The notes under the pieces are model-generated. The model saw only the letters and a program-made list of their open reading frames with translations, ran no database searches and was not told where the DNA came from. DNA of 64,000 nt, taken from the NCBI GenBank assembly GCA_023663825.1, contig JAMPGQ010000002.1:2762-66761 (forward strand). The letters are read 5' to 3'. Positions 16 to 46,732 of this stretch are shown here, piece after piece. Positions within the stretch are counted from its first letter, which is position 1. Every line of letters starts with the position of its first letter. The DNA is from Anaeroplasma bactoclasticum. Its GTDB lineage: Bacteria; Bacillota_I; Bacilli_A; Acholeplasmatales; Anaeroplasmataceae. The translations under genes were made by a program, and so were the position numbers.

Positions 16-1749
16 CTAATTTAGTGCAATTACATAATCGTTTATACTATCTATATCGATTATTGCTTCTGTAGTACCGAAAACACCATATAACTCAGCT
101 TTATCAGTATATATGTAGTTTATTGCGTCCCCATGACCTTCTTGACCTGAAGCAAGATATGTCACCCCTGATTCCATCGCATTCAGTAAGCTAGCATAAT
201 TAGTTACCTTAGCAGAACTAGAACTTATTACCAATGCTGTGATTTCTCCTTGAATACTACCTGAACTAAAATAGATATAATGTGCATACATTTTTTTGAC
301 AGATGGTATAGTTGGTTTGTTTTTCAAAAGATTATAGTCTAATAAATCACTTTTAGAAACTGCACGGAGTTCATAACCATTCCACGCAGCAAGCCAAGTT
401 GTAGAAGACACGCTCATACCATCTTTAGAATAAGCAAACTTTGTATCAGCACCATTATAATAATCTTTTATTACATTTGGTCTTCCATAATCAAAATAGT
501 TTACCTGTTGTTCTGTACCACTAGGAGATTCCTTGTCGTTTCTAGGCGTGAATGAATTAAATTCTCCTTCTATAAAACAAGAACTATTAGAATAATTCCA
601 CGGGAATTTCACATATACCTTGCAAGTGTTATGTGAGGTTGCTATAACAGAAACCTCTACAGTGTTGCATTCCATCCTATATACAGTTACTCCAAAAGCA
701 TTAGTTGTTTCAAGAGGTGCTTGATAACCATCCTTAATCATAATTTGGAACCATTGATTTTGATTTGCACCACCATTATATCCATTTCCTGTTAAAACAG
801 TAATCATAGCGCTTGTGCTATCTCCACTAGATACCAATTCTCCAATACAAACCCACTCTTGTCCAGCGGATATATGAAAAGCCTTGTAATTTAAGTTATC
901 CATCTTACCACTTACAGTTTCTTCTATTTTGCTTTCGAGTAGCTTACCCTTATAATACATATCTCCTGTTTTAGTTATGGCAAATGGAACTATCTCACTA
1001 TCAGAATTTGCTGGTTTATAGCATAGTATTATATCCGCACCTGCGTAATCTCCTTCAGCATTGTAAGTGACATATTCTCTCCCACCAATTTTAATTCTAT
1101 CCTGTGAAGATTCATTAAAGGAAGTTGCATCAGGTATTAAGTTTATTTCTTCACTCGCAAAACCAATTGAGCAACCTCCGAATTTTGCTGTGTACCCGTC
1201 CCCTTGTATTCTTACTTGATTAAGAGCATTGATAATAGTTTCTAGCTCATCTATTTTTATAACCTGAGTTCCAGATTTACTATATACTTTTATATAGCCT
1301 TCATCTATTTGAACTGCCTTATGGTCTGTATAAGTATCACTTGCTGTAGGTGGGTAATATAAGATAACTTTATTCTGGCTATCTACAGCAATAGGGGCAA
1401 AATTAATATTTTCAGTGGTTTTTTTGGGATTTGGAATAGAAGTTTGAAATTTTAAACCGTCATTTTTGGTGTAGACATTTTTCCACGCTTTCGCACTAGA
1501 ACCTAGATTCTGCGTAGCATTGATTTCTGGAGTTAAATTGGACTGCACTTTATTATCTACTTTTAAATTATGGGAAGATAAATTTTTTCCAACAGTTAAG
1601 TTCTTAACCTCTACATCGCTTGTCTCATCTATTGAACTAGGTATTTGACTTTTTATTTTCTCATTAACCAGTTCATCAGTTTCTGATTTTGTATAGTGAT
1701 TTTCTTTAATTTTAAGAACTAAGTTTCTTAAAAATGCAATTAAGTTCAT
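16..1749 (-). CDS. phage tail fibre / receptor-binding protein
   Basis: 577-aa ORF at the distal end of the tail module. Gly/Ser/Thr/Asn-rich beta-type composition typical of fibre proteins. Stop TAG at 16-18. Confidence 0.45.
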   Translation of the reverse strand: MNLIAFLRNLVLKIKENHYTKSETDELVNEKIKSQIPSSIDETSDVEVKNLTVGKNLSSHNLKVDNKVQSNLTPEINATQNLGSSAKAWKNVYTKNDGLKFQTSIPNPKKTTENINFAPIAVDSQNKVILYYPPTASDTYTDHKAVQIDEGYIKVYSKSGTQVIKIDELETIINALNQVRIQGDGYTAKFGGCSIGFASEEINLIPDATSFNESSQDRIKIGGREYVTYNAEGDYAGADIILCYKPANSDSEIVPFAITKTGDMYYKGKLLESKIEETVSGKMDNLNYKAFHISAGQEWVCIGELVSSGDSTSAMITVLTGNGYNGGANQNQWFQIMIKDGYQAPLETTNAFGVTVYRMECNTVEVSVIATSHNTCKVYVKFPWNYSNSSCFIEGEFNSFTPRNDKESPSGTEQQVNYFDYGRPNVIKDYYNGADTKFAYSKDGMSVSSTTWLAAWNGYELRAVSKSDLLDYNLLKNKPTIPSVKKMYAHYIYFSSGSIQGEITALVISSSSAKVTNYASLLNAMESGVTYLASGQEGHGDAINYIYTDKAELYGVFGTTEAIIDIDSINDYVIALN

Positions 1750-3116
1750 TATGCATATACCCCCTTAAATACTTCATCTAAATCAGCCTCATTAAAATCA
1801 AAAAGTATTGAAGATATATCCTCTGTCTTAACATAGTTATCTTCAGTAAACTTTTTACACTCAGCAAATTTTTGATTTATCAGATTTGTTATTGTGGTTG
1901 CAAAATTAGAATCATCTCCTAAGGCTTTTGAAAGTTCAAGAAACGTATCTAGTGCTTGAGGAGCACCATCAATCAGGCTACTCTTCAATGCTTCAATTGC
2001 AGCAGTTCTATCTTTTATTTCTTGTTCTACTTTTCTATAAGTATATGTTTTTGCCTCTTCACAAAGGTTTCTCAAGTCTGCAAGGAGGGAAGCCAAACTA
2101 TCACTACCAATATAAACATCTTGATTAAAAGTAACCACTTTTTTAAATTCTGTTTCATTGTAGAAGCAATTACCGTCATTATCGGATAACCTTAGAAGAA
2201 GATTACCATTATGCTTTATTCCAATAGAATTATCTGAAAGAGTGATTTCTACCTCACCTTCATCTAGGTAATCTTGAATAATGTTTAACAACCTCTTCAA
2301 GTCCATACTTAAATTGTCTAATGTCGATTTAACATCTATATCTCCTAGTTGAATTTCTTTTTCAACATATAAGGTATCATCTATATGGCCATCTACTGAC
2401 CTAATATCATCTACAGTTAGATTTTCACCCATTCCATCCTTGAATTTAATGCCATTTACAACTAGTCCATCTTCGTGGTCAAAGGTTGCAACTACATTTC
2501 CTGCATGAACAATTTTAATATAGTCATCATAGAACTCAATTCTTGTATCTTTACTATCATTAAGATAGTTTTTAATTACAGGAATTAATTTTGAAATTTG
2601 GTTTGACCACACTGCTTCAACAGATGATTGCCTATTGGCTAGATTTGCTATAGTTAGGTTAAGATTATTAAGTATAACTTCTGGATCTTCTCCTACTACA
2701 ATAATGTTGCCCTCACCATATACTGTAGTCTTAACAACCTCATTTACAACCGTTCCCGCTACAGCTTGCTTAATATTGGTTCCACCAGTATTGTAATAAT
2801 CTAATACAACAGAAGCCTCTAATTGTCCTGAATAAGCTAAAAGTCCTGCCTCTGAAGAGATAATGAAATCATAGTAATACCATGTCTTACTTTCTTCACT
2901 TATTAAGCGTGTTAATCCTGCATCAATTCCTATTGGATATAGGGGACCAACTTTTCTTCCTGTAGGAAGCTTAAACATTAATGTGGGACCATAGGCTTCA
3001 GTTGTTTTATCTAAAAGAATTCTAATTCGATCAACGAAATTAGAGCCCTGGTAAAATGGTTTCTCACGTTCAATTTTAATGATAGATAAACTATCGCAAT
3101 TAATATATATCTTCAA
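1749..3116 (-). CDS. phage tail/baseplate-associated protein with coiled-coil segment
   Basis: 455-aa ORF contiguous with the fibre gene. Central predicted coiled coil (KVEQEIKDRTAAIEALKSSL). Confidence 0.4.
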   Translation of the reverse strand: MKIYINCDSLSIIKIEREKPFYQGSNFVDRIRILLDKTTEAYGPTLMFKLPTGRKVGPLYPIGIDAGLTRLISEESKTWYYYDFIISSEAGLLAYSGQLEASVVLDYYNTGGTNIKQAVAGTVVNEVVKTTVYGEGNIIVVGEDPEVILNNLNLTIANLANRQSSVEAVWSNQISKLIPVIKNYLNDSKDTRIEFYDDYIKIVHAGNVVATFDHEDGLVVNGIKFKDGMGENLTVDDIRSVDGHIDDTLYVEKEIQLGDIDVKSTLDNLSMDLKRLLNIIQDYLDEGEVEITLSDNSIGIKHNGNLLLRLSDNDGNCFYNETEFKKVVTFNQDVYIGSDSLASLLADLRNLCEEAKTYTYRKVEQEIKDRTAAIEALKSSLIDGAPQALDTFLELSKALGDDSNFATTITNLINQKFAECKKFTEDNYVKTEDISSILFDFNEADLDEVFKGVYA

Positions 3117-7262: not shown

Positions 7263-7551
7263 TTCCTTCTTTTCTAATAGTTAATATAGTTTCCATAGTA
7301 TTAGCCCAGTTTTCACAACAATGCTTTACCCAACCTAGGCTACTCTTGTTTTTGATTTCAGTAAATAGTGCATAATCTTCTGTGGCAGGTGCTCCTGTCT
7401 CAGTTGCTTCGGTACCTATCTGAATAACATATCCTCCTGGAATTTTTTGGGCGGATTGGATACCATTGTCTCGAAGATTTCCAGTATCAACAGGGGCACA
7501 CCTTTTTAGAAGATGTTCTAGCATATCTGCATCTGCTCTTTTTAGAATCAC
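7240..7551 (-). CDS. phage head-tail joining protein
   Basis: 103-aa ORF in a run of three small genes between the capsid and tail genes. Confidence 0.3.
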   Translation of the reverse strand: MILKRADADMLEHLLKRCAPVDTGNLRDNGIQSAQKIPGGYVIQIGTEATETGAPATEDYALFTEIKNKSSLGWVKHCCENWANTMETILTIRKEGSVYQDDL

Positions 7552-18519: not shown

Positions 18520-18810
18520 ATCTACTTTGACTACAATGACTACATTCCTCGCGCGCGAGGGAGTATATGTGATTAGGCGTGTTAGGCGTGCATTTTTTAC
18601 GCGTGTACTGCCTAATTCGATAAATTTTAAATAATAGCATTTTAATGTAGTCATTGTAGTCAAAATTGAAAATATGTTGATATTTCGCGATATTTTGTGA
18701 CTACATTCTCCTAAATTTAATGTAGTCAAAATGTAGCCCTCTTGTAGACAATTGTCTACATCGAATGTAGTCAATGTAGTCAGTTTTTTAATAGAATGTA
18801 GTCAATTGGT
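18520..18810. repeat. putative phage origin of replication. Nine copies of the iteron (A)ATGTAGTCA (six direct, three inverted), the 18-bp palindrome TGTAGACAATTGTCTACA, the GC palindrome CCTCGCGCGCGAGG and tandem TTAGGCGTG
   Basis: Seen in sequence. Octamer copies at 18528, 18537, 18646, 18655, 18698, 18721, 18766, 18775 and 18797. The repeats fill the intergenic gap between the VRR-NUC and primase genes. Confidence 0.55.
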
Positions 18811-25733: not shown

Positions 25734-25973
25734 TTAATCTATTACTAGTTCCCATAAGCCACTATCTACTTTCACATACTCAAGTCCATCAATTACTCTA
25801 ATTGGTGCTTTGTCTACTACTACCTTTTGTTTAGGTGGTTTCCAGGAATTAAGCATTGCCCAAAGTACTGTTTCCTTTTTCTGTTCAAACCACTTTCTGC
25901 CATATGGATACATCTTCACTAGTTTGTCTATTAAATTCTTCTTTGACTCTGTCATAGCTTGTCCTCCTTCCAA
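25734..25973 (-). CDS. hypothetical phage protein
   Basis: 79-aa ORF. The likely start is MTESKK, preceded by RBS GGAAGGAGGA. Confidence 0.3.
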   Translation of the reverse strand: MEGGQAMTESKKNLIDKLVKMYPYGRKWFEQKKETVLWAMLNSWKPPKQKVVVDKAPIRVIDGLEYVKVDSGLWELVID

Positions 25974-26242
25974 CCTAGACCTCTAAAAGAGGTTTCGTCT
26001 TAATTTTCAAAGACTCATCAGTAGGTTTTATTCTTTTGTTAAGTCCTTCAGTTCTTCCAAACTGATGAGTCCTTTCATAGCACATCTGTATAATGCGTCT
26101 TTAACTAAATCAGCAAATTGATCAAAGGACTTTTCTTTTGATTCAGGAAAGACACATTCAATCCCATCTATATATTCAGTTACTGGCATCTTCCTCACTC
26201 CTTAACCAACTTTATGCTTGTAGGACTTTGTCCTATGGCTTT

Positions 26243-26446
26243 TTATTCTTCAATAACCAGACGGTCTAAAGCCCACTCAAGACATAGCTTAACTATGTTT
26301 GATATTGTTCTATTGGCACCATTTGATGCAGCAACAACCTTCTCCTTTAATTCTGGAGTTATTCTAGCTGTTAACTTTTCAGAGCATACATCCTTGATGG
26401 TATCCAATTTCTTAATTACAAAAACTTCTTTGACTTCATTACTCAT
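26243..26446 (-). CDS. ribbon-helix-helix (Arc/MetJ/CopG-like) DNA-binding protein
   Basis: Start MSNEVKEV with RBS AAGGAGG. RHH-like segment LTARITPELKEKVVAASNGANRTISNIVKLCLEWAL. Confidence 0.4.
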   Translation of the reverse strand: MSNEVKEVFVIKKLDTIKDVCSEKLTARITPELKEKVVAASNGANRTISNIVKLCLEWALDRLVIEE

Positions 26447-26596
26447 ATTTCTTTCCTCCTTGGCACTCTCTTTTCGAGATTGCAAAATTTTGCTTTTTGT
26501 GTTATAATTTGTATTAAGTAGATTGCCTCTTAAAAAGGACGAATTCCAATATCTTTTTCTTTGGCAAAATCATCTACAGATTGGCGGTGTTATATA

Positions 26597-26953
26597 ATGG
26601 GAATTAAAGATGCTCTCAGCTCTCTTAAAAGTAAGGTCGTTGATGCAAATGAATTAAGAAAAGCAAGAAATCTAGCTTCTGATGAATTTGAGAAGCAGAA
26701 TTTCAAATTCCAAAAAACAGATTCAAAATTACCGAGTTCTATATATGGAATTGTAGATGTTGTTAATAATAAATTCATTTGCAGATCAAGTGATGAACTT
26801 AAAGTAGAAACCATCCTAAAAGGAACCCAAAATGGTTCAGTAATCAGGTTCAATGTAGTTACTGTTTATAAAAATCAGCAACAGTTCGACCACAAGATAG
26901 AGGGTGTTGAGCCCTTTCCCCTAGATGTTTGTGACATCCAAATACTCAAGTAG
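26597..26953 (+). CDS. hypothetical protein on the opposite strand (moron-like accessory gene)
   Basis: 119 aa counted from the internal ATG (track ORF 26561..26953). It is the only sizeable plus-strand gene within a long minus-strand block. Confidence 0.35.
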   Translation: MGIKDALSSLKSKVVDANELRKARNLASDEFEKQNFKFQKTDSKLPSSIYGIVDVVNNKFICRSSDELKVETILKGTQNGSVIRFNVVTVYKNQQQFDHKIEGVEPFPLDVCDIQILK

Positions 26954-26961
26954 TAGAGGTA

Positions 26962-27144
26962 CTAAATACCTCTATTTTTTCTTATTTTAGATATATCTCT
27001 AAGTACTACATGAAGAGCATTTATTTCGTGTTCAACTTCTTTTTTTATACTTCTTGAATGTTTCCCATTGATAATATTCTCAAAGTCACTTATTCTTTTC
27101 TTAATAATTGCTTCTAGTTGTTCTAACTCATCATTCATTCTCAT
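26962..27144 (-). CDS. hypothetical small phage protein
   Basis: 60-aa charged helical ORF. Confidence 0.25.
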   Translation of the reverse strand: MRMNDELEQLEAIIKKRISDFENIINGKHSRSIKKEVEHEINALHVVLRDISKIRKNRGI

Positions 27145-27376
27145 ACACCTCCAAAAATTCTACTATGCTGATACCCAGCACCTTTGCCATGTTAGCAATG
27201 TCAACCACTCTAAAATCCCCATTGTTAAAGTTTATGGTTCTATGCATAGTTGACGGGTTCATATTGATTGTTTTGCATAAATCCTTTCTTAGGATTTTTT
27301 TCTTTGCTAAAAGTTCATTAAACTTCTCTTCGTTAAAGTTCATATTCCCTATTTCCTCCTTCTTTTTTAAGTGCAC
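27131..27376 (-). CDS. XRE-family HTH protein (likely start at ATG 27343, MNFNEEKF)
   Basis: HTH segment KKKILRKDLCKTINMNPSTMHRTIN. Operator-like GTGCAC repeats lie just upstream. Confidence 0.4.
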   Translation of the reverse strand: MHLKKKEEIGNMNFNEEKFNELLAKKKILRKDLCKTINMNPSTMHRTINFNNGDFRVVDIANMAKVLGISIVEFLEVYENE

Positions 27377-27390
27377 AAATAGTGCACAAT
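27371..27390. promoter_or_regulatory. operator-like site GTGCACAAATAGTGCACAAT, a second locus of the switch-region operator family
   Basis: It shares the 17-mer GCACAAATAGTGCACAA with the reverse complement of 32699-32717. Confidence 0.45.
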
Positions 27391-27581
27391 TACTTTAAAA
27401 AAATATCTGCACTCACGTTTAATGCTTTGGCTATTAAGCCTAGTTCTGCAGCAGTAAGCTTAGCCTTACCATTAACGATTCGGCCTACTCGATTCCTATG
27501 AATTCCCGTAACCCTTATCACAAACGCCTGGGAGATCCCATGTTCTTCTAAGTATTGCTTAATCTTCTCATTTACTTCCAT
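27390..27581 (-). CDS. XRE-family HTH protein (63 aa)
   Basis: HTH segment ISQAFVIRVTGIHRNRVGRIVNGK. Confidence 0.45.
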   Translation of the reverse strand: MEVNEKIKQYLEEHGISQAFVIRVTGIHRNRVGRIVNGKAKLTAAELGLIAKALNVSADIFLK

Positions 27582-27648
27582 TTCTTAATTCCTCCTCTAT
27601 CATATTTGTGGATATAATAGTTTCATTTATTGGTGCCCTTGATTCCCT

Positions 27649-27888
27649 TCACAAATATATTCTAAGTCTATACCTTTTTATGTATGCACATACTTTTTGC
27701 AAATCCCCTTTATTACGGATATAGGATTCCTGTATCCTCTCGAAAGGAATCAGTGCTCCTTTTTGTAATATCAAGCAGTATGTAGGACAATATCCATCTG
27801 GAACTGCCTTACATTTATTACAACATTCAGAGCAGAAGTCTTGATATGTTTTAATGCACCAATTAGGAATATTACCCACTCCCATCAC
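27649..27888 (-). CDS. Cys-rich hypothetical protein
   Basis: 79 aa with multiple CxxC-like pairs. Confidence 0.3.
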   Translation of the reverse strand: MMGVGNIPNWCIKTYQDFCSECCNKCKAVPDGYCPTYCLILQKGALIPFERIQESYIRNKGDLQKVCAYIKRYRLRIYL

Positions 27889-28157
27889 TTATCACTCCAA
27901 TCTAATTTTTGACCGCAAATAGGACAATATCTATGTAAAGAGCATAATGAATATCGTTTATTATTTAATTGCTCACATCTAGGACAAGTGTATTTTATAT
28001 ATGGCTCCTGTCCTTTTTCTTCATAGTGATTTTCTATTGGTTTGATAGGTGTTTCCTTATTCACTAGTTCTTGTAATGTTTCTACATCCTTATCACCCTG
28101 ATAGTATGCAGCATCACATCCACATAGATTATTTAATGCCTCTTGATAATTATTCAC
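27885..28157 (-). CDS. zinc-ribbon hypothetical protein
   Basis: CGC...CPRC...CPICG motifs. Confidence 0.3.
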   Translation of the reverse strand: MNNYQEALNNLCGCDAAYYQGDKDVETLQELVNKETPIKPIENHYEEKGQEPYIKYTCPRCEQLNNKRYSLCSLHRYCPICGQKLDWSDK

Positions 28158-28465
28158 ACTTCATCACATCTCTTTCTTCTAATTTCAAATGCATAAGAAT
28201 TAGCTATCTTATGAAGTAAATATTCATCTGTCATTGCAGCGGTATCCCCTGTATGATAATAAACAAAATATCCATAAGCTGGTTTGCCATTCCAATCTGT
28301 TTTGACACGAACCTCTTTGACTACTCCTAACTCATAGCTATCTCCATTTTGATATATAACTATTTCTCCAACTTTGAATAATGGTTCACTAGTTATTTCC
28401 TCTGGATTTAACCTCCTAAGCAAATGATTATGACATACTATTTCATTGTTATGTAAATAGCACAT
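28154..28465 (-). CDS. hypothetical phage protein (the frame stays open 39 codons upstream, back to the TAA of the preceding gene)
   Basis: 103 aa from the first ATG. The upstream in-frame stretch is Cys-rich (CIGNGQCSCVDC). Confidence 0.3.
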   Translation of the reverse strand: MCYLHNNEIVCHNHLLRRLNPEEITSEPLFKVGEIVIYQNGDSYELGVVKEVRVKTDWNGKPAYGYFVYYHTGDTAAMTDEYLLHKIANSYAFEIRRKRCDEV

Positions 28466-28582
28466 TGAAGTCCAAGTCCTATTCCAACCTACTTCTTTTT
28501 CACAATCAACACAGGAGCATTGACCATTTCCAATACATTGCTTTACTGTATGACCATTTATAACTACATTTCCTAGTCTCCA

Positions 28583-28792
28583 TTATTCTAAGAACTCCTT
28601 AATACACTCTAAAATATGGTTAATTGCAAAATCTTCATCTCCACTGTTGTCATCATGCTTAAGTTTGTAGATTCTATTTCTAACAACCTTTAGTTCTTCA
28701 ACATCTAATCCTTCATCAATTAAATTATGATAGAACTCAATTTTTTCTAATATGCTTGTCCCTCTTTTAGGAGTTGGTACTACTCTTTTCAT
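28583..28792 (-). CDS. hypothetical phage protein (69 aa), same frame as the downstream ORF
   Basis: Stop TAA at 28583-28585 is the only interruption between two same-frame ORFs. Confidence 0.3.
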   Translation of the reverse strand: MKRVVPTPKRGTSILEKIEFYHNLIDEGLDVEELKVVRNRIYKLKHDDNSGDEDFAINHILECIKEFLE

Positions 28793-29024
28793 TCCTTACC
28801 TCCTCTTCTATTTCCTTCAACATATCATAGATTAACTCCTTATCTCCATCTGCATATTCATAAACCATTCTAATAAGATTATACAATGCGGATTCTTTTG
28901 CAAGATTCCCCTTTAATCTCATCTTTGTTTCGTTACCGTCAAATCTTCCTTTAAATGTTGCCTTTAATTTCCATTTTTTTCCAAACATAGTTACACCTCC
29001 TAATCTAAATGATACGTGGAACAC
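28767..29024 (-). CDS. hypothetical phage protein
   Basis: 85-aa ORF. Confidence 0.25.
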   Translation of the reverse strand: MFHVSFRLGGVTMFGKKWKLKATFKGRFDGNETKMRLKGNLAKESALYNLIRMVYEYADGDKELIYDMLKEIEEEVRNEKSSTNS

Positions 29025-29629
29025 ACTTTTAATTTAGACTTTAAAACCTTCTCAGCATCTAGCACAAGTAAAACATAGGCCAAGTTATCATTTTCATCGC
29101 TAGAAATCTTGAGAAGGTTCCGATGGAAATTTAACTCAACATACTTTACCTTACTGAATGCAAGTTTTAATGCAATCAATAATAACTCTGCTTCTAAGTA
29201 ATAAAGTTGCCCCTCTATTTCCAAGCAACAGACTTTGCTTAATACTGTATTTCTGCATTCAGGTGGAACGGCATCTAGGAAGGTGTACAGACCCTTAACA
29301 TCTACGTAATCTCTAGAGTGCTCTATTGGCATCTCATCAATACCATTAGGAAGGGATTTATATTCGTTCTTGGCCAACTCTTCAAATGTAATCCTAGTTC
29401 TACCTCTATTGAAAAGCAGTGTGCCTTTAGGAGGTTTCTCATAATAATAAATTGCTTCATCCTGAATTTGAGAATCACCTTTAAGGATGATATAGTATAA
29501 ACCATTCGTAAATACCTGGTGATCATCATTTTGCTTTAGAAATCCATAAGGTTTCTTAGGATGATTTTTAAAATTTAAAAGCTGCTGCTTTTTCAAGAAT
29601 GAAATTCTTGCTTTATCCGTACAAATCAT
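29000..29629 (-). CDS. hypothetical phage protein
   Basis: 209-aa ORF. Confidence 0.3.
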   Translation of the reverse strand: MICTDKARISFLKKQQLLNFKNHPKKPYGFLKQNDDHQVFTNGLYYIILKGDSQIQDEAIYYYEKPPKGTLLFNRGRTRITFEELAKNEYKSLPNGIDEMPIEHSRDYVDVKGLYTFLDAVPPECRNTVLSKVCCLEIEGQLYYLEAELLLIALKLAFSKVKYVELNFHRNLLKISSDENDNLAYVLLVLDAEKVLKSKLKVCSTYHLD

Positions 29630-29634
29630 AGTTC

Positions 29635-29802
29635 TTATAAACCAAGTTTATGAATAATGTCATCTACTCGGTCTGCCTCCTTCTTCAAACTTTGAGCATC
29701 CTTCTTAGAAGCGGTTTTTAAAAGTATATTAGTTTCCTCTTGATGCTCTTTTAAAATCATTCTTAAAAGACTTCGTTCCTTAGTTGTTAAATCCTTCTTC
29801 AT
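29635..29802 (-). CDS. 55-aa hypothetical protein (MKKDLTTKERSLLRMILKEHQEE...)
   Basis: Strong RBS AAGGAGGTG 7 nt before the ATG at 29802. Below the track cutoff. Confidence 0.3.
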   Translation of the reverse strand: MKKDLTTKERSLLRMILKEHQEETNILLKTASKKDAQSLKKEADRVDDIIHKLGL

Positions 29803-29816
29803 TACTGGTCACCTCC

Positions 29817-30194
29817 TTATTGTTTTGTCTCTAACTGTTTTATAACTGACAAGACATCATCATATATTTCAGAGGTTGTCCATTTTTTGCTATCAGGAGA
29901 ATTGTAGCATAATGAAGTATAATCTCCTACATGAGCATAGTCCCATCCTATCCAAAACGACCCATCATCTTCTATCCAATAGGCATCCCCACCATAAGTT
30001 AGTCCCCCATGTACCTCTATTTCTATATCTGAGTAATGCTTTTTAAATACAGGATAATTACTTGGGATTTCCACATAGGCCACAGGGTGCGTTCCTAGAC
30101 TCAGAATCGCATATCTATGGATTCCTATCTTTCCTTGGTCTAATATAGTAACTCTTCTTGTAATGTCATATTTCATCTCATTCATTTTTTTCAT
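29817..30194 (-). CDS. hypothetical phage protein
   Basis: 125-aa ORF. Confidence 0.3.
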   Translation of the reverse strand: MKKMNEMKYDITRRVTILDQGKIGIHRYAILSLGTHPVAYVEIPSNYPVFKKHYSDIEIEVHGGLTYGGDAYWIEDDGSFWIGWDYAHVGDYTSLCYNSPDSKKWTTSEIYDDVLSVIKQLETKQ

Positions 30195-30197
30195 CTC

Positions 30198-30362
30198 CTA
30201 TACAACCCAAACTGTTACTAGGACAAATATAATTGCTAATAGTACTATGGATACAATGATTGATACACTTGGTTCTTCGTCCTCGTTGACTATAATGCCA
30301 ATTGATAGAAAGAATAGTATAATTCCAAGAATTACTGTTGATATTATTCTCATTGCTAACAT
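30198..30362 (-). CDS. 54-aa two-TM membrane peptide (MLAMRIISTVILGIILFFLSIGIIVNEDEEPSVSIIVSIVLLAIIFVLVTVWVV)
   Basis: Two hydrophobic helices separated by the acidic loop NEDEEPS. Its stop overlaps the next gene's start. Confidence 0.35.
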   Translation of the reverse strand: MLAMRIISTVILGIILFFLSIGIIVNEDEEPSVSIIVSIVLLAIIFVLVTVWVV

Positions 30363-30385
30363 TTTTCTAAATCTCCTTTTTTTTT

Positions 30386-30988
30386 CTAGTTTGCGTGCTT
30401 ACCACCTTTTAGATATCCTCTTTCGTTAAAGTATCTAAACATAGTGGCATTTGATAGTCCTAGTCTATCGCTAGCCTCATTACATGTCAGTTGCCCATTT
30501 TTATACATCAATCCTATTTCATCAATGTTAGGGGGAAGAATCGCTTTAGGCCTTCCAAACTTGATGCCTCTTGCTTTTGCAGCTGCAATTCCTTGAGCCT
30601 GTCTTTTAAGTATGTTCTCACGTTCAACTTGAGCCACATAGGATAATAAATTTAAGACTATATCTGTAATAAGTTTAGAGGTTAAGTCATCTTTGGAAGT
30701 ATCTAATATAGGCATATCTAAGATTTTAATTTTAATCCCTCTGGCACTTAAGTATTGCCATTCTTGTTTTATCTGATCATAGTTTCTACCAAATCTGTCA
30801 AGGGACAGAACGATGAGAGTGTCCCCCCCCTTTAGCTTTTTTCTCATCCTTTGATAATTCTTTCTTTCAAAATCTTTACCACTCTGTTTATCCTGGTACA
30901 GTACATAGGGCCTGTACTTCTCAAACTCTGCAATTTGTCTATCTAGATTTTGGTCTTCTGTACTAACTCTGGCATAACAATATATCAT
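30386..30988 (-). CDS. small serine recombinase (Hin/Gin/resolvase family DNA invertase); contains a G8 homopolymer
   Basis: MIYCYARVSTEDQNLDRQ with the catalytic Ser, GDTLIVLSLDRFGRN, and a C-terminal HTH. The track ORF runs to 31129, but the conserved start is the Met at 30988. The C8 run at 30823-30830 encodes KGGD. Confidence 0.7.
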   Translation of the reverse strand: MIYCYARVSTEDQNLDRQIAEFEKYRPYVLYQDKQSGKDFERKNYQRMRKKLKGGDTLIVLSLDRFGRNYDQIKQEWQYLSARGIKIKILDMPILDTSKDDLTSKLITDIVLNLLSYVAQVERENILKRQAQGIAAAKARGIKFGRPKAILPPNIDEIGLMYKNGQLTCNEASDRLGLSNATMFRYFNERGYLKGGKHAN

Positions 30989-31366
30989 TGCGGTATTCCC
31001 TCCTTTATTGGCTACCAAGATCAAGCGCCCGTTCACTAATGTGTAAATTGGGAGGTAATAGTTTGATGATTGCATCTGGAACGTATTATTAACGAGCAAT
31101 GCTCGGCGCTTGATTTCGACTAGAGCCACCTAGTCATCATCGGTTGGCTTTATTTAATTTTAATCTGCATTTGTTAGAATACTTATCAGATTATCGAGTT
31201 CTGATATAACCTCTTTCTTAAATTGTTCACCATAGATATACTTATTTATCAATCCTATTAGGGTATCATAGGACTTTTGTTCTTCCTGGGTTAAATAGTC
31301 TATTGGCATATGTTTCTTCTCCTCTTGGTTCACATCGTGTTATAATTATTTAAAGGAGGTGTCATT

Positions 31367-31600
31367 ATGACCTTTAAAGAATGGTTACTAAATTATCAAG
31401 GAAATGATAGCATGGTACTAGATATTCAGGAAGATGCTAGCCATGATTCTACATTCCCTGATTCAGATAGCTATGATGTCTACCATTGCTATCTGAAATG
31501 GGATAAGCGTGCTGATAAGATTGTGATGGAATTCTTTGACCACGCTTTTAATTGCTACCATTCATCTGTTTTTGGTAAGCCTCGAACATCTGATAAGTAG
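31367..31600 (+). CDS. hypothetical protein (77 aa)
   Basis: Strong RBS AAAGGAGGTG 7 nt upstream. Confidence 0.35.
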   Translation: MTFKEWLLNYQGNDSMVLDIQEDASHDSTFPDSDSYDVYHCYLKWDKRADKIVMEFFDHAFNCYHSSVFGKPRTSDK

Positions 31601-31745
31601 CATGTTCATCAAAGATGATTCTATATAGTTTAGGATGGTCAAATGGATTTCTACAAGCTATATAGAATTCATCTCCTAATTGCACTAGTTGTAGCGCTTG
31701 TCTTGCTTCCTCTATAGTAGAGGGGGTCTTTTTGTTATCAGGCAT
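31548..31745 (-). CDS. hypothetical protein (65 aa), convergent with 31367..31600 and overlapping it by 53 nt
   Basis: RBS AAAGGAGGAAATAT before the ATG. Confidence 0.35.
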   Translation of the reverse strand: MPDNKKTPSTIEEARQALQLVQLGDEFYIACRNPFDHPKLYRIIFDEHATYQMFEAYQKQMNGSN

Positions 31746-31757
31746 ATATTTCCTCCT

Positions 31758-31997
31758 TTATATTTCTCGAATTTGAATAGTTATTGTACCTAAGTTCGAT
31801 TTAAAGTAATCATATTCTTTTTGATTTAGAAAAAACCATCCCATATCACCTGCTCCGAAGTCGGCTTCACTCTCAGTTAGATAAGCTCCGCCCTCGATTA
31901 AATGCACAGGATGCTTCCCCTTAGTTTTAACATCGTATAGGTGCATCTTTTTTGGTTCATACACTGCTGCTAAAATAGTTTTTGTAACTAATGCCAT
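31758..31997 (-). CDS. hypothetical phage early protein
   Basis: 79-aa ORF directly downstream of the cro-like gene. Confidence 0.3.
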   Translation of the reverse strand: MALVTKTILAAVYEPKKMHLYDVKTKGKHPVHLIEGGAYLTESEADFGAGDMGWFFLNQKEYDYFKSNLGTITIQIREI

Positions 31998-32002
31998 CTT
32001 TA

Positions 32003-32230
32003 CTATTCCTCCTTATTTTTGTTTGCAAAAATCATAACCAATTCTTCAATAGATGAATTAAGTACAACTGCCAATTTTGCTATGCTTGCACAACTTGGCT
32101 CACTTTTACCCCTACACCATCTATAAATTGTTGTATGAGTTTTATTCATAACTTTACCTAAGGATTCCTGGGTAAATCCTCTGTTTTTAACTAATTCTTC
32201 AAATGTCATATCTTGTCCTTTCTTTTGCAC
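32003..32230 (-). CDS. Cro-like XRE HTH regulator
   Basis: HTH segment FTQESLGKVMNKTHTTIYRWCRGK. Divergent from the cI-like repressor across an operator-rich region. Confidence 0.5.
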   Translation of the reverse strand: MQKKGQDMTFEELVKNRGFTQESLGKVMNKTHTTIYRWCRGKSEPSCASIAKLAVVLNSSIEELVMIFANKNKEE

Positions 32231-32689
32231 GTTTTTAGTGCTATAATTGATTTGTCAGCTATTGTTGGCAGGAAGGGGGTATTTGGCTTGAAGAAACTTC
32301 TTAAAGCCTTAATGCCTATGCCCTGTTGTTTTGTAATTGCAATGCTTACGGCATAAATTTCTTCCACCTGAACAATAACCGGTAAAGTGAGCGTCCTTCC
32401 ACAGAAAAGAACAGTGCATTCTGTTCTTATAATACTAATTGTAGAGAAAAGTTAATTGAACTTTTTTGGGGGTATTGGTTTCCGATATCTTCATAATTTG
32501 GATATTAACCTTTCTCACCGGTGGTGGTGCAAACACCTAAAAAGCACCTATAAAATCCTTTAGTATTATTGCAGGAGTTTAAACTAAACAAATATTGCAT
32601 CGAAGGTAATGTGAATGCACGCATTGCCTTTTTTGTTCTATTCGTTTCCAAATACCCCTTTTCTGCCAACAATAGTCGACCTCTATTCC

Positions 32690-32815
32690 TCCTATTTTGT
32701 GCACTATTTGTGCTATCTACATCCGTTATAACACAGGACGTGCACTTTGTCAACACTTTTGTTCGCTTTTTGTGCAAATAATTGCGTTTATAGTGCAAAA
32801 AATGTACAATATTAT
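32690..32815. promoter_or_regulatory. phage genetic-switch operator/promoter region with GTGCAC-based operators and the repressor promoter (TTGCGT-17-TACAAT)
   Basis: Operator-like sites TGTGCACTATTTGTGCTATC (32698-32717), GTGCACTTTGTCAAC, TTGTGCAAATAA and AGTGCAAAAAATGTACAAT. The last overlaps the -10 element of the promoter for 32835. Confidence 0.5.
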
Positions 32816-32834
32816 TAAAAAAGGAGCCAATTAT

Positions 32835-33179
32835 ATGACAAATAAAAGACTAAGAGAACTAAGATTAGAAAAGAGAATGACTTTAAGAGAGCTAAGCGAA
32901 AAATTGAATATATCATACTCAAATATTGCCATGATAGAAAGAGGCGAAAGAAATTTAACTGCTGATACAGCTAAAATTTTTTCAAGTTTTTTTAGTGTAT
33001 CTACAGATTATTTACTTGGGCTGACTGATGAAAGAAATGCTACAATTTCTTCTTCTATCAAAGACCAATTATCAGATGCTCAAATTGCTTTTTATAATCA
33101 CACCGAAAATCTTACGGATGAACAAATGCTTGATGTCATAAAATATGTAGAATTCTTAAAAAGCAAAGAGAATAAATAA
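32835..33179 (+). CDS. cI-like XRE-family repressor with C-terminal oligomerisation-type domain
   Basis: ATG at 32835 with RBS AAAGGAG. HTH segment MTLRELSEKLNISYSNIAMIERGERN. C-terminus EQMLDVIKYVEFLKSKENK. Confidence 0.55.
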   Translation: MTNKRLRELRLEKRMTLRELSEKLNISYSNIAMIERGERNLTADTAKIFSSFFSVSTDYLLGLTDERNATISSSIKDQLSDAQIAFYNHTENLTDEQMLDVIKYVEFLKSKENK

Positions 33180-33225
33180 TCTCATTTTCTCGGTACTGTA
33201 TTATAATTTGTAATAAAAGGAGCTG

Positions 33226-33576
33226 GTGGAATTGAATAATTTAAGATTTTTAAGACAGGATTTGCATATGACCCTTAGGGAATTGGCAGACAGGGTCCAT
33301 ATAGATTTTTCTGCACTATCTAGAGCAGAAAATGGAAGGCGCAATTTGAATGATAATGATATAATGATATTAACAAATTTTTTCAATGTGTCATCTGACT
33401 ATCTTCTAGGTCTCTCAGACAAAAGAGTGCCCGAGCCAATCGCCACTCCTTCTGCAGCACCTATTCAAGATGAGGCTCTTATAGCCCTTTATAATCAAAC
33501 GGAGGGCTTGAGCAAGGAACAGATGGATCAAGTTATTAGTTATGTTCAATTCTTGAAAAGTAAGGAGAACAAATAA
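33226..33576 (+). CDS. second XRE-family regulator, paralog of the cI-like repressor
   Basis: Aligns along its whole length with 32835..33179 (HTH MTLRELADRVHIDFSALSRAENGRRN, identical C-terminal FLKSKENK). A TATAAT -10 element lies at 33202-33207. Confidence 0.5.
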   Translation: MELNNLRFLRQDLHMTLRELADRVHIDFSALSRAENGRRNLNDNDIMILTNFFNVSSDYLLGLSDKRVPEPIATPSAAPIQDEALIALYNQTEGLSKEQMDQVISYVQFLKSKENK

Positions 33577-33619
33577 AAAAAATCCCAATTAAGGGAGTAA
33601 GGGAAAGGATAGAGGAAAT

Positions 33620-35158
33620 ATGGATGAATATGTAGAAAAACAACTTAAAGAAATTTTTTCAAATTTTACGAAAAGACCTGTAGCTTTTATAGGATCTGGC
33701 ATTAGCAAAAGATACCTTGATACTCCTACTTGGATAGGATTACTCAAGAAGACGTTCAATGAATATAATAGCAATATTGCTGAATTTGGTCAAATGCTCA
33801 GAAAATATGGCGATACCCATTTAGATCAAGTAGCCTCTAATATAGAAAACGACTATGATAGCTATTTCATTCATCATATCTGCACAAATCCGAATCATAA
33901 AAATTATCAACTGTATTTAGAGAATAAGAATGCAATTGATAATGGCAAAATACATCCTTACAAAATATATACAGCTAATGTCTTTAAGCAAGCCTCTTTA
34001 AACGCTATATTTAACGATGAGAGAAATGAATTTATATCCTTTATAGGTAAATGTGCAAATATTATAACTACTAACTATGACACCCTTTTAGAAAACATTT
34101 CTAATCTGGACACCATTATAGGAAGCAAGGACTTTATAAGTGAAAAATGCATAGGGTATGGTGAGTTATACAAAATACATGGTTGTTGCAGTAATCCAAA
34201 TTCTATGGTACTTACTGCTGAAGATTATCAAAACTTTAATGAGAAAAAGTCTTTTTACCATGCAAAGCTTCTTCTTTCGTTTATTCAACAACCAATTATC
34301 TTTTTGGGGTATTCCTTAAGTGATGGCTATATAGAAGGGATTTTGGAGGATGTGGCCAAAATGCTAGACGATGAAGATCTTGAAGTTTTAAGCAAAAGAC
34401 TTGTCTTCGTTGAGTATACAGAAACTCCACAGACAAGCATACGTGAGAAAATAATTAAAAAACTCCAAATGACATGCATTAGAACGAACGACTATAAAAC
34501 AATTTATAGATTAATGTCTGAAAATGTTAGAGAAGGAATCCCGCTAGACTTAGTTAAAAGGTTCCAAGAAGCTGTAAAAAACTTTATTTATGAGCAGGAT
34601 AACCCTAAGGCACTACCAGTAACAGGTATTAACGACATCAAAGATCCTAGAGGGCTCACTGCATTTCATATAGGGTCTAAACCAGTCAGTGACAATTCTT
34701 CTCTTTTCACTTCTAGAGATTTGTTAAACGACATACTTTATAACACTGGAAGGCTGCCAAATAGTGATGTAATAATCGATAAAATCCATTCTGAGGCATT
34801 AAGATTTCCAAGAGAAGCATTTACACCTCTTTATAAATATTATAATAATTCTAGCAAAAAATATTCTTTATCTGATTTATCAAAAACATTTATAACAAAC
34901 GTGTTGGATTTAAAAAAAGGCCCCGACAAGTATATAGCCAAAAATTTTATAGATTTAAAACAAAAGATTGAATCTTCATGCAACAATGAAAATGACGTAC
35001 TCCAGCTATTATTGAAAAATATTGAATTGTGTGACTCTAAATTTCTTCGTGACACATTGACAAATATTCATCCTAATCCTTTCAGCAGTGAGGAAAAGGT
35101 AGATACAAAATACCGAAAATTGATTGCGGCTATAGATTTTTTAGAAAACGGACAATAA
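33620..35158 (+). CDS. SIR2-like (sirtuin-fold, ThsA/DSR-type) protein with an uncharacterised ~260-aa C-terminal domain; candidate NAD-depleting anti-phage/abortive-infection effector
   Basis: Gly-rich N-terminus VAFIGSGISKRY, TTNYDTLLE (catalytic Asn), KIHGCCSNP (catalytic His) and IIFLGYSLSD, the order expected for a defense-type SIR2 domain. No TIR, HerA or pAgo partner lies nearby. Confidence 0.65.
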   Translation: MDEYVEKQLKEIFSNFTKRPVAFIGSGISKRYLDTPTWIGLLKKTFNEYNSNIAEFGQMLRKYGDTHLDQVASNIENDYDSYFIHHICTNPNHKNYQLYLENKNAIDNGKIHPYKIYTANVFKQASLNAIFNDERNEFISFIGKCANIITTNYDTLLENISNLDTIIGSKDFISEKCIGYGELYKIHGCCSNPNSMVLTAEDYQNFNEKKSFYHAKLLLSFIQQPIIFLGYSLSDGYIEGILEDVAKMLDDEDLEVLSKRLVFVEYTETPQTSIREKIIKKLQMTCIRTNDYKTIYRLMSENVREGIPLDLVKRFQEAVKNFIYEQDNPKALPVTGINDIKDPRGLTAFHIGSKPVSDNSSLFTSRDLLNDILYNTGRLPNSDVIIDKIHSEALRFPREAFTPLYKYYNNSSKKYSLSDLSKTFITNVLDLKKGPDKYIAKNFIDLKQKIESSCNNENDVLQLLLKNIELCDSKFLRDTLTNIHPNPFSSEEKVDTKYRKLIAAIDFLENGQ

Positions 35159-35512
35159 AAAAAGGGGCACTTTGAAACTCTACTCTACAAGAATAGTTTT
35201 CTAGTTCACATAGCTCTCCGAACTACTAAACAAGTGCTCTTCTTTTATTCTTCCGGATACATATATTTTACCATGGTTAAATTTTTTGTCAATACCTTTT
35301 TCGGTGCAATTGCACCATTTTTGTTAACTTTTTTGTGCCATGGGGCTAAAAATCAGTAGTTGCAACTCAATCAAAGCCATTACTAGCGTATGCACATATA
35401 CCTATATTTATACACATTAAAATAACTATGAGAGATAAAATATGAAGTTAGATAATCTCACTAAACTAGAACAAGAGGCTACAGAGCATAACATAAAGTC
35501 TTCTATGCAGAT

Positions 35513-35746
35513 ATGTCTAAAATGCCTTCAGATGCTCTTATCCTCTTCTATCAGGGAGAATATACCATCTTAATTGAAAGGTCCCTAGACAGGGAGAATA
35601 AGGCCATAAGACTTGCCCATGAATTAGCACATTACCATACCTGCACCTTGAGCAAATACAATTCCTCAAAAGAGGAAATCGAAAATAATGAAAGAATAGC
35701 TGTTGAATATAATATACTTAAAAGGAAGGAGGAATCTAATCAATGA
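35513..35746 (+). pseudogene. ImmA/IrrE-family (HEXXH) metallopeptidase remnant, truncated at both ends
   Basis: ILIERSLDRENKAIRLAHELAHY matches the ImmA zinc-binding core. It has only 77 aa and the N-terminal half is missing (stops in frame upstream). Confidence 0.4.
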
Positions 35747-37245
35747 AAGCTGCATTATATACACGTGTTTCTACAGATGAACAAGTTGAAAAAGGTTTCT
35801 CCTTAGAAGCTCAAAAAAGGCGTTTGATGGAATATTGCATAAAGAACAACTATGAGATTTATAGGCTTTATAGAGATGAAGGAATATCTGGTCATTCTAT
35901 TTCAAAGAGAAAGTCACTCCAGGAAATGTTGCAGGATGCAAGAGAAAAAAAGTTTGATTGTGTAGTCGTATATAAGACTGATCGTTTATCCAGGAATCTT
36001 TTAGACCTTCTGACAATAAAAAAAGAACTCGATGCTGCAGATATCGAGTTGATAATGTCTGATGAATCCGTTGACACTTCTGATGATACAGGAATGGCCA
36101 TGTTTTCTATTATGGGCGCCTTTGCAGAGCTAGAACGTAAAAAGATAAGCGAACGTCTAATGTCCGGAAAAAGACAAAAGATGAGAACAACAGGAATCAA
36201 GCCAAAACACGGGGTAATTCCTTATGCGTATATTTATGATGACATCAACAAGCAATACATAGTAGATGAAAGATATCGCCAGGATATAATTAGGATGTAT
36301 GAGATGTATGATGCTGGATCTTCTTATAATGAGATAGCACAATATATGGTAAATAACAATTTGAATTTTGGTCGAAGTAGAAATAGATGGCACGCTTCAG
36401 ACATACCACGAGTCTTAAAAAATCCAACGTATAAAGGATGGACTGGTATTTCCTACTATAATCATGTACATACCTCACTCAAATATGTAAATGATACAAT
36501 TCTCGTCAAGGCTACCAACGTGGAGCCAATTGTATCTGAAGAACTATGGGATCGTGTAAACAGTAGGGCTAATATTAAAAGTACTTACTTTGTCCGAAAG
36601 TACCCAAGTGATGTATTTATTTTTGCTGGATTACTATACTGTAGCAGTTGTGGATATCGTCTATCTACCAATCAGTCTACAGAGCGAGTTACAAAAAATG
36701 GAAAAGTTCGCTACTTCTATTATGAATGCAATTCTAAATTTAAGATATATACTAGTGAGGAAAAATGCCCTGGATTCAATATTAATAAAGATTCTTTTGA
36801 AGCTATGTTTAAAAAATTTATTAGTGGAATTTCCTCTAATAAAAAGTTTTCAAAAAAGTATAGTTCGGATGAGGCAACTGAACTAGTTAAGAAAAGGGAC
36901 AGTATCAACTATCAAATCACTACCAAGAACCGACAACGAGAAATACTATTAGAGAAACTCTCATGTCAAACTATCACAGATGATGATTTCAAATTAATGT
37001 CTAATAAACTAGTAATGGATATACAAATGCTTGCTAAAGAATTAGAAACAATCGAGAAGAGCATTTCTACAATATCAGATAAGATTGAATATGAGAATGC
37101 TATTTTAGACCATATTAATACTCTTACCTCTTTAATCAAGACATGGGACATAATTCCTAATGAGGAAAAGAAATTAATATTACATAAGTGCATCAAAAGG
37201 ATTTATGTAAATAGATCTGGAATCACCAAAATAGAATTCATCTAA
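35743..37245 (+). CDS. large serine recombinase (phage integrase)
   Basis: N-terminal resolvase domain LYTRVSTDEQ with the catalytic Ser, and VVYKTDRLSRN. Recombinase and zinc-ribbon regions (CSSCGYRL...YYECNS). C-terminal coiled coil. 500 aa. Confidence 0.85.
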   Translation: MKAALYTRVSTDEQVEKGFSLEAQKRRLMEYCIKNNYEIYRLYRDEGISGHSISKRKSLQEMLQDAREKKFDCVVVYKTDRLSRNLLDLLTIKKELDAADIELIMSDESVDTSDDTGMAMFSIMGAFAELERKKISERLMSGKRQKMRTTGIKPKHGVIPYAYIYDDINKQYIVDERYRQDIIRMYEMYDAGSSYNEIAQYMVNNNLNFGRSRNRWHASDIPRVLKNPTYKGWTGISYYNHVHTSLKYVNDTILVKATNVEPIVSEELWDRVNSRANIKSTYFVRKYPSDVFIFAGLLYCSSCGYRLSTNQSTERVTKNGKVRYFYYECNSKFKIYTSEEKCPGFNINKDSFEAMFKKFISGISSNKKFSKKYSSDEATELVKKRDSINYQITTKNRQREILLEKLSCQTITDDDFKLMSNKLVMDIQMLAKELETIEKSISTISDKIEYENAILDHINTLTSLIKTWDIIPNEEKKLILHKCIKRIYVNRSGITKIEFI

Positions 37246-37640
37246 CTTTACCTATTTACATTTGAGCAAAAATCGCATATAATATAGGCGTAAGAAACAA
37301 AATAAAAAAGGACTAGCCAGATGGCTACCCTTGAATAGTTGTTTAAACAACCACTAAGTCTGCCAAAACTAGAAGTGGTTGTTTTTTCTTTGTAGCAAAA
37401 CTACTACTAATCGAACCACAGAGGCCACGAGGCCTATTATAGCAGCGACTAGAGATATTATAACTAACACCAAAGTCTTTCCCTTTCTTAAGATTCAACA
37501 ATATCATGTATCATTCCTCCTTAAGATTTGAGGGCAACCACCTTATATTTGACTAATCCTTCTGCAGGCTTATTTTGGCCTGCATTTATATATTAGCACC
37601 AAAAATCGACAATGTAAAACATTATTTTTAATTTGGTTTT

Positions 37641-46657: not shown

Positions 46658-46732
46658 GCCTGGTTAGTTAAATGGATATAACGTAATCCTCCTAAGATTA
46701 AATTATGAGTTCGAGTCTCGTACCGGGTGCCA
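46658..46732 (+). tRNA. tRNA-Arg (anticodon CCU)
   Basis: Hand-folded cloverleaf. Acceptor GCCTGGT/ACCGGGT (two G-U pairs), D-arm GTTA/TAAC with a GG loop, anticodon arm TAATC-CTCCTAA-GATTA, T-arm ATGAG-TTCGAGT-CTCGT, encoded CCA. Confidence 0.5.

Follow-up and report, generated by a model that had tools for sequence, protein, structure and literature searches.

Slippage in a run of identical bases switches homopolymer contingency loci; examples are the poly-G genes in Campylobacter jejuni and phase-variable genes in Haemophilus and Neisseria. Phase variation of this kind is known mainly from bacterial surface and restriction-modification genes, and site-specific recombinases themselves drive another kind of phase variation. 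Among the small recombinases, Sin-type resolvases have their res sites directly upstream of the resolvase gene, and Hin/Gin-type invertases require Fis, a proteobacterial protein that binds an enhancer within the 5' portion of the invertase gene. A literature search returned no described homopolymer-controlled serine recombinase. Here we analyse a window of 64,000 nucleotides (nt) from the gut mollicute Anaeroplasma bactoclasticum (contig JAMPGQ010000002.1 of GCA_023663825.1). Its part from position 1 to ~37258 is an integrated prophage, open at the left window edge and read as temperate, which encodes a small serine recombinase with eight consecutive G (G8) in its coding strand. From sequence comparison we consider it probable that this tract is a mutational ON/OFF (contingency) switch of the phage recombinase. 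The gene resembles the known contingency loci by a G run of at least 7 in the first third of the coding sequence (CDS) in AT-rich DNA, by a tract length that differs between near-identical genomes and shifts the frame, and by a run that is kept against codon usage. It differs from them in that the switched gene is a phage site-specific recombinase and not a surface-structure or restriction-modification gene.

The coding strand at the tract reads AAG CTA AAG GGG GGG GAC (K-L-K-G-G-D), followed by TLIVLSLDRFGR. Its translation confirmed that the C8 of the forward strand (30823-30830) encodes the KGGD of the recombinase, as the first-pass annotation had read it. The C8 is the sole G/C run of at least 6 in the window, which has 34.4% GC. 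One G added or lost leaves a stub of 63 or 72 amino acids (aa) in the window gene. In an AF2 model of the protein the tract residues 52-56 form the loop joining helix 43-51 and strand 57-60. Residue 54 is variable in 119 homologues (S, D, E, A, N, K, Q and others) and G55 is nearly invariant.

The same prophage was compared in a second A. bactoclasticum assembly, GCA_023667685.1 (locus L216), which is 99.6% identical over 27340-32693. Its recombinase carries a G9 tract and the gene is otherwise 100% identical; the G9 frame ends in ...KLKGGGHSHRSVP and a stop codon after 63 aa, and the assembly has no gene call at this place. All of the 33 A/T runs of at least 6 (A8 and T9 included) are equal in length between the window and L216 over 10,168 aligned bases. 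Because these control runs are unchanged, a generic homopolymer error is an unlikely source of the G9. The remaining single-base insertions or deletions (indels), T3/T4 and T2/T3, are intergenic. Only 4 single-nucleotide polymorphisms (SNPs) are found in the 5 kb left of the control region, and therefore very little divergence time was available for the tract change. The 49-aa open reading frame (ORF) upstream of the recombinase, looked up by exact match, retrieved just three contigs, two of them carrying G8 and the other G9. The matching prophage with G8 is located on JAMPFO010000003.1 of GCA_023664425.1, and the proteins of the third bin are MCM1130124.1 and MCM1195527.1. In NCBI the identical proteins are assigned to A. 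bactoclasticum, one bin bearing the label Roseburia.

The tract also recurs in diverged homologues. It is G8 in L082 (94% aa identity) and in L175 (60%, GGG GGG GGC), and G7 in L168 (67%), L170 (64%) and L176 (51%). Including the window, GGG-GGG is present at the Gly-Gly in six of seven lineages, the relatives being 51-94% identical. The seventh, L177 (50%, from a locus of 47% GC), uses GGC GGT and has no tract, and four tract-bearing relative loci have 27-35% GC. In the loci L170, L175 and L176 the tract is the sole G/C run of at least 6, and L082 has one further run, a C6. Both frameshifts end at 57-76 aa in all six tract-bearing lineages. Relatives without Gly-Gly show GAA GGA or CAA GGA at the tract position, and in the AT-rich ones among them G55 is GGG in 2 of 12. 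In the remainder of the recombinase homologue genes GGG makes up ~14% of the Gly codons (12.6% for the phage and 3.6% for the host ORFs of the window), and the background of GGG against which the tract was judged is 13-17%. At ~14% usage a double GGG is expected in ~2% of independent lineages, and five or six of seven lineages with GGG-GGG are, on codon comparison, incompatible with drift at saturated synonymous sites. The proposal of the first-pass annotation that the tract is a slipped-strand ON/OFF site is thus supported by the G9 allele of the sister assembly, with its 63-aa stub in an otherwise identical gene, and by the recurrence of the tract in six of seven lineages.

The same annotation had called a G tract highly unusual in this genome. 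This stands for its recurrence in homologues and for the G8/G9 difference between sister assemblies but not for composition, which alone allows one C8. Several observations weigh against a switch. A first-order model expects ~0.2 runs of at least 8 in the window, such that one C8 is not improbable, and 42 of 100 dinucleotide shuffles match the observed count of G7 words. A serious caveat is that the three assemblies (two ON, one OFF) are consensus sequences of metagenome bins, and the G9 could stem from an error in the assembly or from irreversible inactivation by mutation. The protein database yielded OFF fragments neither for the window lineage, where the top matches all cover at least 90% of the query, nor for the P0018 lineage with 31 contigs. 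Moreover, no rearrangement separates the ON and OFF prophages, which are collinear over 25970-37258. The recombinase might be an ordinary accessory enzyme with an incidental G run, the G9 being a consensus error or a one-off inactivation without any switching. The composition, the single OFF allele among three assemblies and the missing OFF fragments would fit this, all the more as an accessory gene of the lytic cycle would be free to decay in a prophage at no cost. We regard this as unlikely. GGG-GGG has been kept or regained in six of seven lineages down to 51% identity, in DNA of 27-35% GC and at a GGG usage of ~14%, the OFF gene is otherwise unchanged, and no other long homopolymer differs. 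G/C runs of at least 5 are depleted in the window (10 observed, ~26 expected). Two further roles of the tract were rejected. A programmed frameshift to an alternative product finds both shifted frames stopping after a few codons with no conserved alternative ORF, and for an internal start behind a Shine-Dalgarno-like G run no start codon was seen by eye within 20 nt downstream.

In the proposed contingency switch, replication slippage would gain or lose one G in the tract. G8 would yield the full 200-aa enzyme and G9 or G7 a stub (63 or 72 aa) devoid of the dimerisation helix and the DNA-binding domain. Switching would be reversible and frequent, with the tract kept by selection. Synthesis of the enzyme would be confined to induction or infection, when the early operon is transcribed, and the enzyme would then act on phage DNA. 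As a best guess, the target would be a res-like site within the 170 conserved bp that directly precede the gene, and the role would be resolution or circularisation of replicating genomes. This proposed target and role are tentative, and our confidence in them is low.

The recombinase starts with an ATG at 30988, ~9 nt past a AAAGGAGGG ribosome-binding site. Pfam matches are Resolvase PF00239 (101 bits, residues 2-141) and HTH_7 (20.6 bits, E = 5e-4, slightly under the cutoff of 23.8). In 26 aligned homologues the catalytic positions Y5, R7, S9, D64, R65 and R68 do not vary. The AF2 model (mean pLDDT 83) has a long E helix (102-139) followed by three helices at 155-190. With PF00239 and a C-terminal helix-turn-helix (HTH), the protein belongs by sequence to the small serine recombinase (resolvase/invertase) superfamily. 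Many members of the subfamily (P0005, P0010, P0014, P0002 and P0018) are 250-315 aa long, with a C-terminal extension that resembles one or two additional HTH units past the usual DNA-binding domain. A scan of genome contigs for relatives retrieved almost exclusively Collinsella and related actinobacteria at ~50% identity. In the phage collection relatives were found at the protein level only (43-47% identity), and no DNA match, near or distant, was obtained there.

The first-pass annotation had assigned the gene to the Hin/Gin-type invertases, which is not borne out. Compared with proteins of solved structure, the recombinase scores best with Sin/Bin3 (96 bits, residues 1-155), followed by gamma-delta (82), Tn3 resolvase (77) and Gin (63), the lowest among the solved relatives compared. 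None of the NCBIfam models reaches its cutoff, the Mpi invertase model giving 48.7 bits versus a cutoff of 272. The PHROG match (phrog_125, 179 bits) bears the family label 'DNA invertase', which is taken to be generic. The nearest plasmid genes are annotated 'recombinase family', are 43-48% identical and stem mostly from Enterococcus and Clostridium. By sequence the recombinase is therefore placed nearer to the Sin/Tn3 resolvases of low-GC Gram-positives than to Hin/Gin. Its C-terminal motifs GRPKAI and FRYF may be Hin-like.

With Sin, Tn552 Bin3 and the plasmid resolvases of low-GC Gram-positives the window gene shares a catalytic domain followed by an HTH in ~200 aa and a conserved non-coding region directly upstream. 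In contrast to Sin/Tn3 resolvases it is located in a phage early operon and not on a plasmid or transposon, and other than Sin/Bin3 it carries a poly-G tract and has no recognisable site I / site II repeats upstream. Hin, Gin, Cin and Pin have superfamily and size in common with it, and Gin and Cin are phage-borne likewise, but the window gene lacks an adjoining invertible segment, 26-bp inverted crossover sites and any connection with tail fibres. The master invertase Mpi of Bacteroides fragilis, a serine invertase acting on distant sites, would permit a remote target; however, the recombinase stays far under the NCBIfam cutoff for Mpi and is not a member. Since the prophage carries its own large serine integrase, the small recombinase is best seen as an accessory enzyme. 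An earlier suggestion of a second resolvase or integrase thus holds in part, as to an accessory enzyme, with a resolvase-like role only possible on the present sequence comparisons.

The 170-bp region upstream of the recombinase is ~95% identical to L082 (by eye), versus 87% for the whole shared block, and the ORF upstream of it is more diverged; the region exceeds the coding DNA in conservation. This 49-aa ORF is called as a gene in three of three assemblies of the same prophage. Only the window and L082 have an ORF of 49-51 aa plus the 170-bp non-coding region upstream of the recombinase. The region contains a perfect 10-bp inverted repeat, ATCAAGCGCC / GGCGCTTGAT, with 76 bp between the arms, and a 13-bp palindrome, CGAGCATTGCTCG. 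It shows no sigma-70-like promoter on the coding strand, no significant RNA fold (z-score -1.4) and no second copy within the window. As a putative res-like or regulatory site it is the strongest candidate. Two points speak against such a site: the region has no recognisable repeated sub-sites, and relatives such as L168 and L170 lack an intergenic region upstream altogether. In L168, L170 and L175 the recombinase is found within co-directional operons of small genes, often with intergenic gaps of 1-3 nt, L170 being an integrated prophage that encodes a tyrosine integrase of its own. The L176 recombinase is divergent from its upstream genes and the L177 recombinase adjoins pilus-type genes; altogether the flanking genes vary from locus to locus. 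L168, a phage contig of 27% GC, bears in addition to the G7 recombinase a G9 run (7284-7292) 22 nt inside a 179-aa ORF, which may be a second contingency tract of the same phage.

Other substrates of the recombinase have to be weighed against a res-like site. A host-range switch of the Gin/Hin type would invert distant tail-fibre segments or the convergent gene pair at 31367-31745. It could draw on the PHROG family name, on the C-terminal motifs GRPKAI and FRYF and on a 19-nt inverted repeat (31180-31198 / 31581-31599, 17/19, matched by 1 of 60 shuffles) with one arm in the convergent pair. The first-pass annotation had rightly noted that the tail-fibre genes are ~27 kb away from the recombinase. 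A tail-fibre shufflon was rejected, however, as the tail genes are co-directional, including 2.7 kb past the window edge (L174), and inverted repeats in the tail region of the window and these 2.7 kb are just 16-22 nt long and 73-88% complementary. The search for hix/gix-like inverted repeats, as crossover-type repeats flanking the recombinase, yielded no pair adjoining the gene in the window or in five relatives. The convergent pair was named as a possible target by the first-pass annotation and was rejected as an invertible segment, being a fixed module: a related mosaic prophage that lacks the small recombinase shows it in one orientation throughout 23 contigs (L186 and 22 more). Both of its genes are real; the 77-aa ORF on the + strand matches phrog_8600 and has its own ribosome-binding site and extended -10 box. 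The module runs antisense within the early operon and in L186 directly adjoins the repressor. The 19-nt repeat has its arms within the 3' ends of unrelated ORFs that belong to two different mosaic modules. L082 does not conserve one of the arms, and the repeat, whose arms are thus not co-conserved, was set aside. Gin is moreover the weakest among the solved relatives, and the requirement for Fis speaks against this type of switch, Fis being not known outside proteobacteria and the host lineage being a mollicute one. The Gin/Hin-type host-range switch is largely refuted, we give it next to no probability, and the recombinase is not a tail-fibre switch.

Another candidate substrate encloses the RNA FuFi-1, an orphan structured RNA with a 3' terminator whose function is not known (PMC5737381). 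In the window FuFi-1 is situated between the cro-like and repressor genes; L082 is arranged alike, including a 33-nt inverted repeat around the RNA. The recombinase might be an invertase or cassette-exchange enzyme that acts on this repeat, 1.27 kb upstream, and rewires the immunity switch, which we rate as quite unlikely. No other inverted repeat in the prophage part of the window comes near this pair, 27/33 being reached by 0 of 60 shuffles, and the pair is shared, together with FuFi-1, by the closest recombinase relative (L082). The homology with the recombinase-less L186 ends at 32253 and restarts at 32686, the outer edges of the arms. However, a single orientation is found in the window, L216 and L082, with contigs passing straight across both arms. 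By eye the arms do not show the clear dyad symmetry typical of a recombinase dimer site, and no FuFi-1 is located within 10 kb of the G-tract recombinases of L168 and L170, which are less closely related. An RNA stem would explain the repeat equally well: G-U pairing would accommodate three of the four mismatches in the + strand RNA, and in the predicted fold of the + strand segment the arms form the closing helix (z = -8.7). From this folding model an RNA processing stem appears at least as likely as a recombination substrate, and it is possible that the arms are operator sites. That the conserved poly-G tract gates a recombinase whose substrate is this FuFi-1 cassette in the lysis-lysogeny control region has only a slim chance of being correct. 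If true, hypermutation would set whether progeny phages can flip or exchange an immunity RNA module. The placement of the orphan FuFi-1 in a phage immunity region makes its function testable.

The recombinase could also help to move or maintain a neighbouring cargo gene, with the tract modulating that activity. Small serine recombinases have been reported as markers of adjoining anti-phage defence genes, the role of the recombinase itself being not known (PMC13552941), and such enzymes of mobile elements are a subject of current interest. PinQ (PMC12529663) and PinR (bioRxiv 10.1101/2025.03.28.646004) are small serine recombinases of cryptic prophages. Like these and the EF_B0058-type genes (PMC13552941), the small serine recombinase of the window is borne by a mobile element and has an accessory or unassigned role, and a SIR2-type defence candidate (PDC-S25) is found 2.6 kb away. 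Compared with L082, the window has a two-gene insertion directly after the recombinase (a 54-aa membrane ORF and a 125-aa phrog_2164 ORF), and the homology of the two breaks 19 nt ahead of the recombinase stop codon. On the other hand, the downstream ORFs have no PADLOC match, the 125-aa ORF is present in L186 without any small recombinase, and the neighbours are different in each relative. Unlike the EF_B0058/PinQ/PinR group, the window gene is part of a lytic early operon and is not co-transcribed with a recognised defence gene, and no inversion substrate was found for it in the window and five relatives. The two large indels between the window and L216 join at ribosome-binding-site microhomologies and not at repeated sites. 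Judged from these junctions, the indels between the ON and OFF prophages are ordinary phage mosaicism. A service to cargo genes is thus very doubtful. An 878-bp segment (26462-27339) with ribosome-binding-site microhomology at its junctions is missing from L216; it includes a + strand 130-aa ORF (26561-26953) within the leftward operon.

A summary of the features is given in Table 1.

Table 1. Location of the recombinase, the G tract and further features of the prophage and its right flank in the window.
Feature	Position	Strand	Remarks
Small serine recombinase CDS, ON allele	30386-30988	-	200 aa, intact
G8 homopolymer (C8 on + strand)	30823-30830	-	codons K53-G54-G55-D56
Conserved non-coding region, candidate res-like or regulatory site	30989-31159	-	170 bp directly upstream of the recombinase
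49-aa ORF, conserved partner upstream of the recombinase	31160-31309	-	full-length homology to the 51-aa ORF of L082
Convergent two-gene module	31337-31759	+/-	77-aa ORF (+) and 65-aa ORF (-), 3' ends overlapping by 53 nt
cro-like gene	32003-32209	-	first of the leftward early operon
Control region between cro-like and repressor genes			625 bp
33-nt inverted repeat around FuFi-1	32254-32286 / 32648-32680		29/33 complementary
FuFi-1 RNA, Rfam RF02986	32342-32634	+	74 bits versus gathering score 59.6
Two XRE-type repressor genes	32835-33576	+	
SIR2_2-domain gene beside the repressors	33620-35158	+	PADLOC candidate single-gene defence system PDC-S25, 318 bits
Large serine integrase	35743-37245	+	ends 13 nt short of the prophage junction at about 37258
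Replication genes			PD-(D/E)XK, single-stranded DNA-binding protein, DNA polymerase A, VapE-like primase
Structural and tail genes	left of the replication genes		tail-fibre-like PHROG matches on 1749-3116
Host genes	right of 37860		htrA, tatD, tuf, fusA, rpoC

The SIR2_2 gene is, from its domain and PADLOC match, probably a prophage-borne anti-phage gene. At the prophage junction the sequence reads ...CTTTACCTATTTA up to the junction and CATTTGAGC beyond it. Beyond the same junction L216 has a different sequence, i.e. the prophage is in a different or variable flank there. A tRNA gene (46658-46729, +, Rfam 55.7 bits) is encoded opposite to the neighbouring host genes, and by coordinate arithmetic the shorter NCBI contig bearing the same prophage stops near it. 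Directly upstream of the VapE-like primase gene, positions 18521-18782 contain clustered direct and inverted copies of TGACTACAATGACTACATT; from its repeats this cluster looks like replication-origin iterons.

Around FuFi-1 the divergence between the window and L216 is uneven. The segment 32338-32647 holds 14 of the 18 SNPs of the 5.3-kb block and diverges by 4.5%, the sequence to its left by 0.08% and to its right by 1.3-1.9%. On this SNP pattern it could be an RNA module that evolves fast or is exchanged, as would be expected if it determines immunity. By eye, an extended -10 box, TGCTATAAT, was seen at 32239-32247, immediately upstream of the first arm of the 33-nt repeat. A motif GCCAAC N6 TGAC common to the region upstream of the recombinase and the 33-nt arms (11/17 by eye) was dropped, being within chance on a rough estimate. 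A search for further relatives, of the switch region as well as of FuFi-1, by DNA pattern scans of viral and metagenome contigs gave chance matches only.

Further to the left, a hammerhead-ribozyme-like element is found at 25973-26045 on the - strand. It has three stems and the canonical core CUGAUGAG...CGAAAC...GUC, and its Rfam match is sub-threshold (RAGATH-1-hammerhead, 29 bits, E = 0.005). L082 has two direct hammerhead-like copies (1-60 and from 4104), with a stem III differing from that of the window. The 30-mer at the contig end of L082, which equals window positions 25992-26021, was considered as an inversion junction and rejected, as it is a repeated hammerhead-like core in direct orientation.

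Taken together, if the tract of the recombinase gene is a contingency switch, phages of AT-rich gut bacteria would bet-hedge on a DNA-rearranging activity. The natural ON and OFF alleles of one prophage would then offer a simple way into the function of the phage-borne small serine recombinases, a large and so far uncharacterised group.

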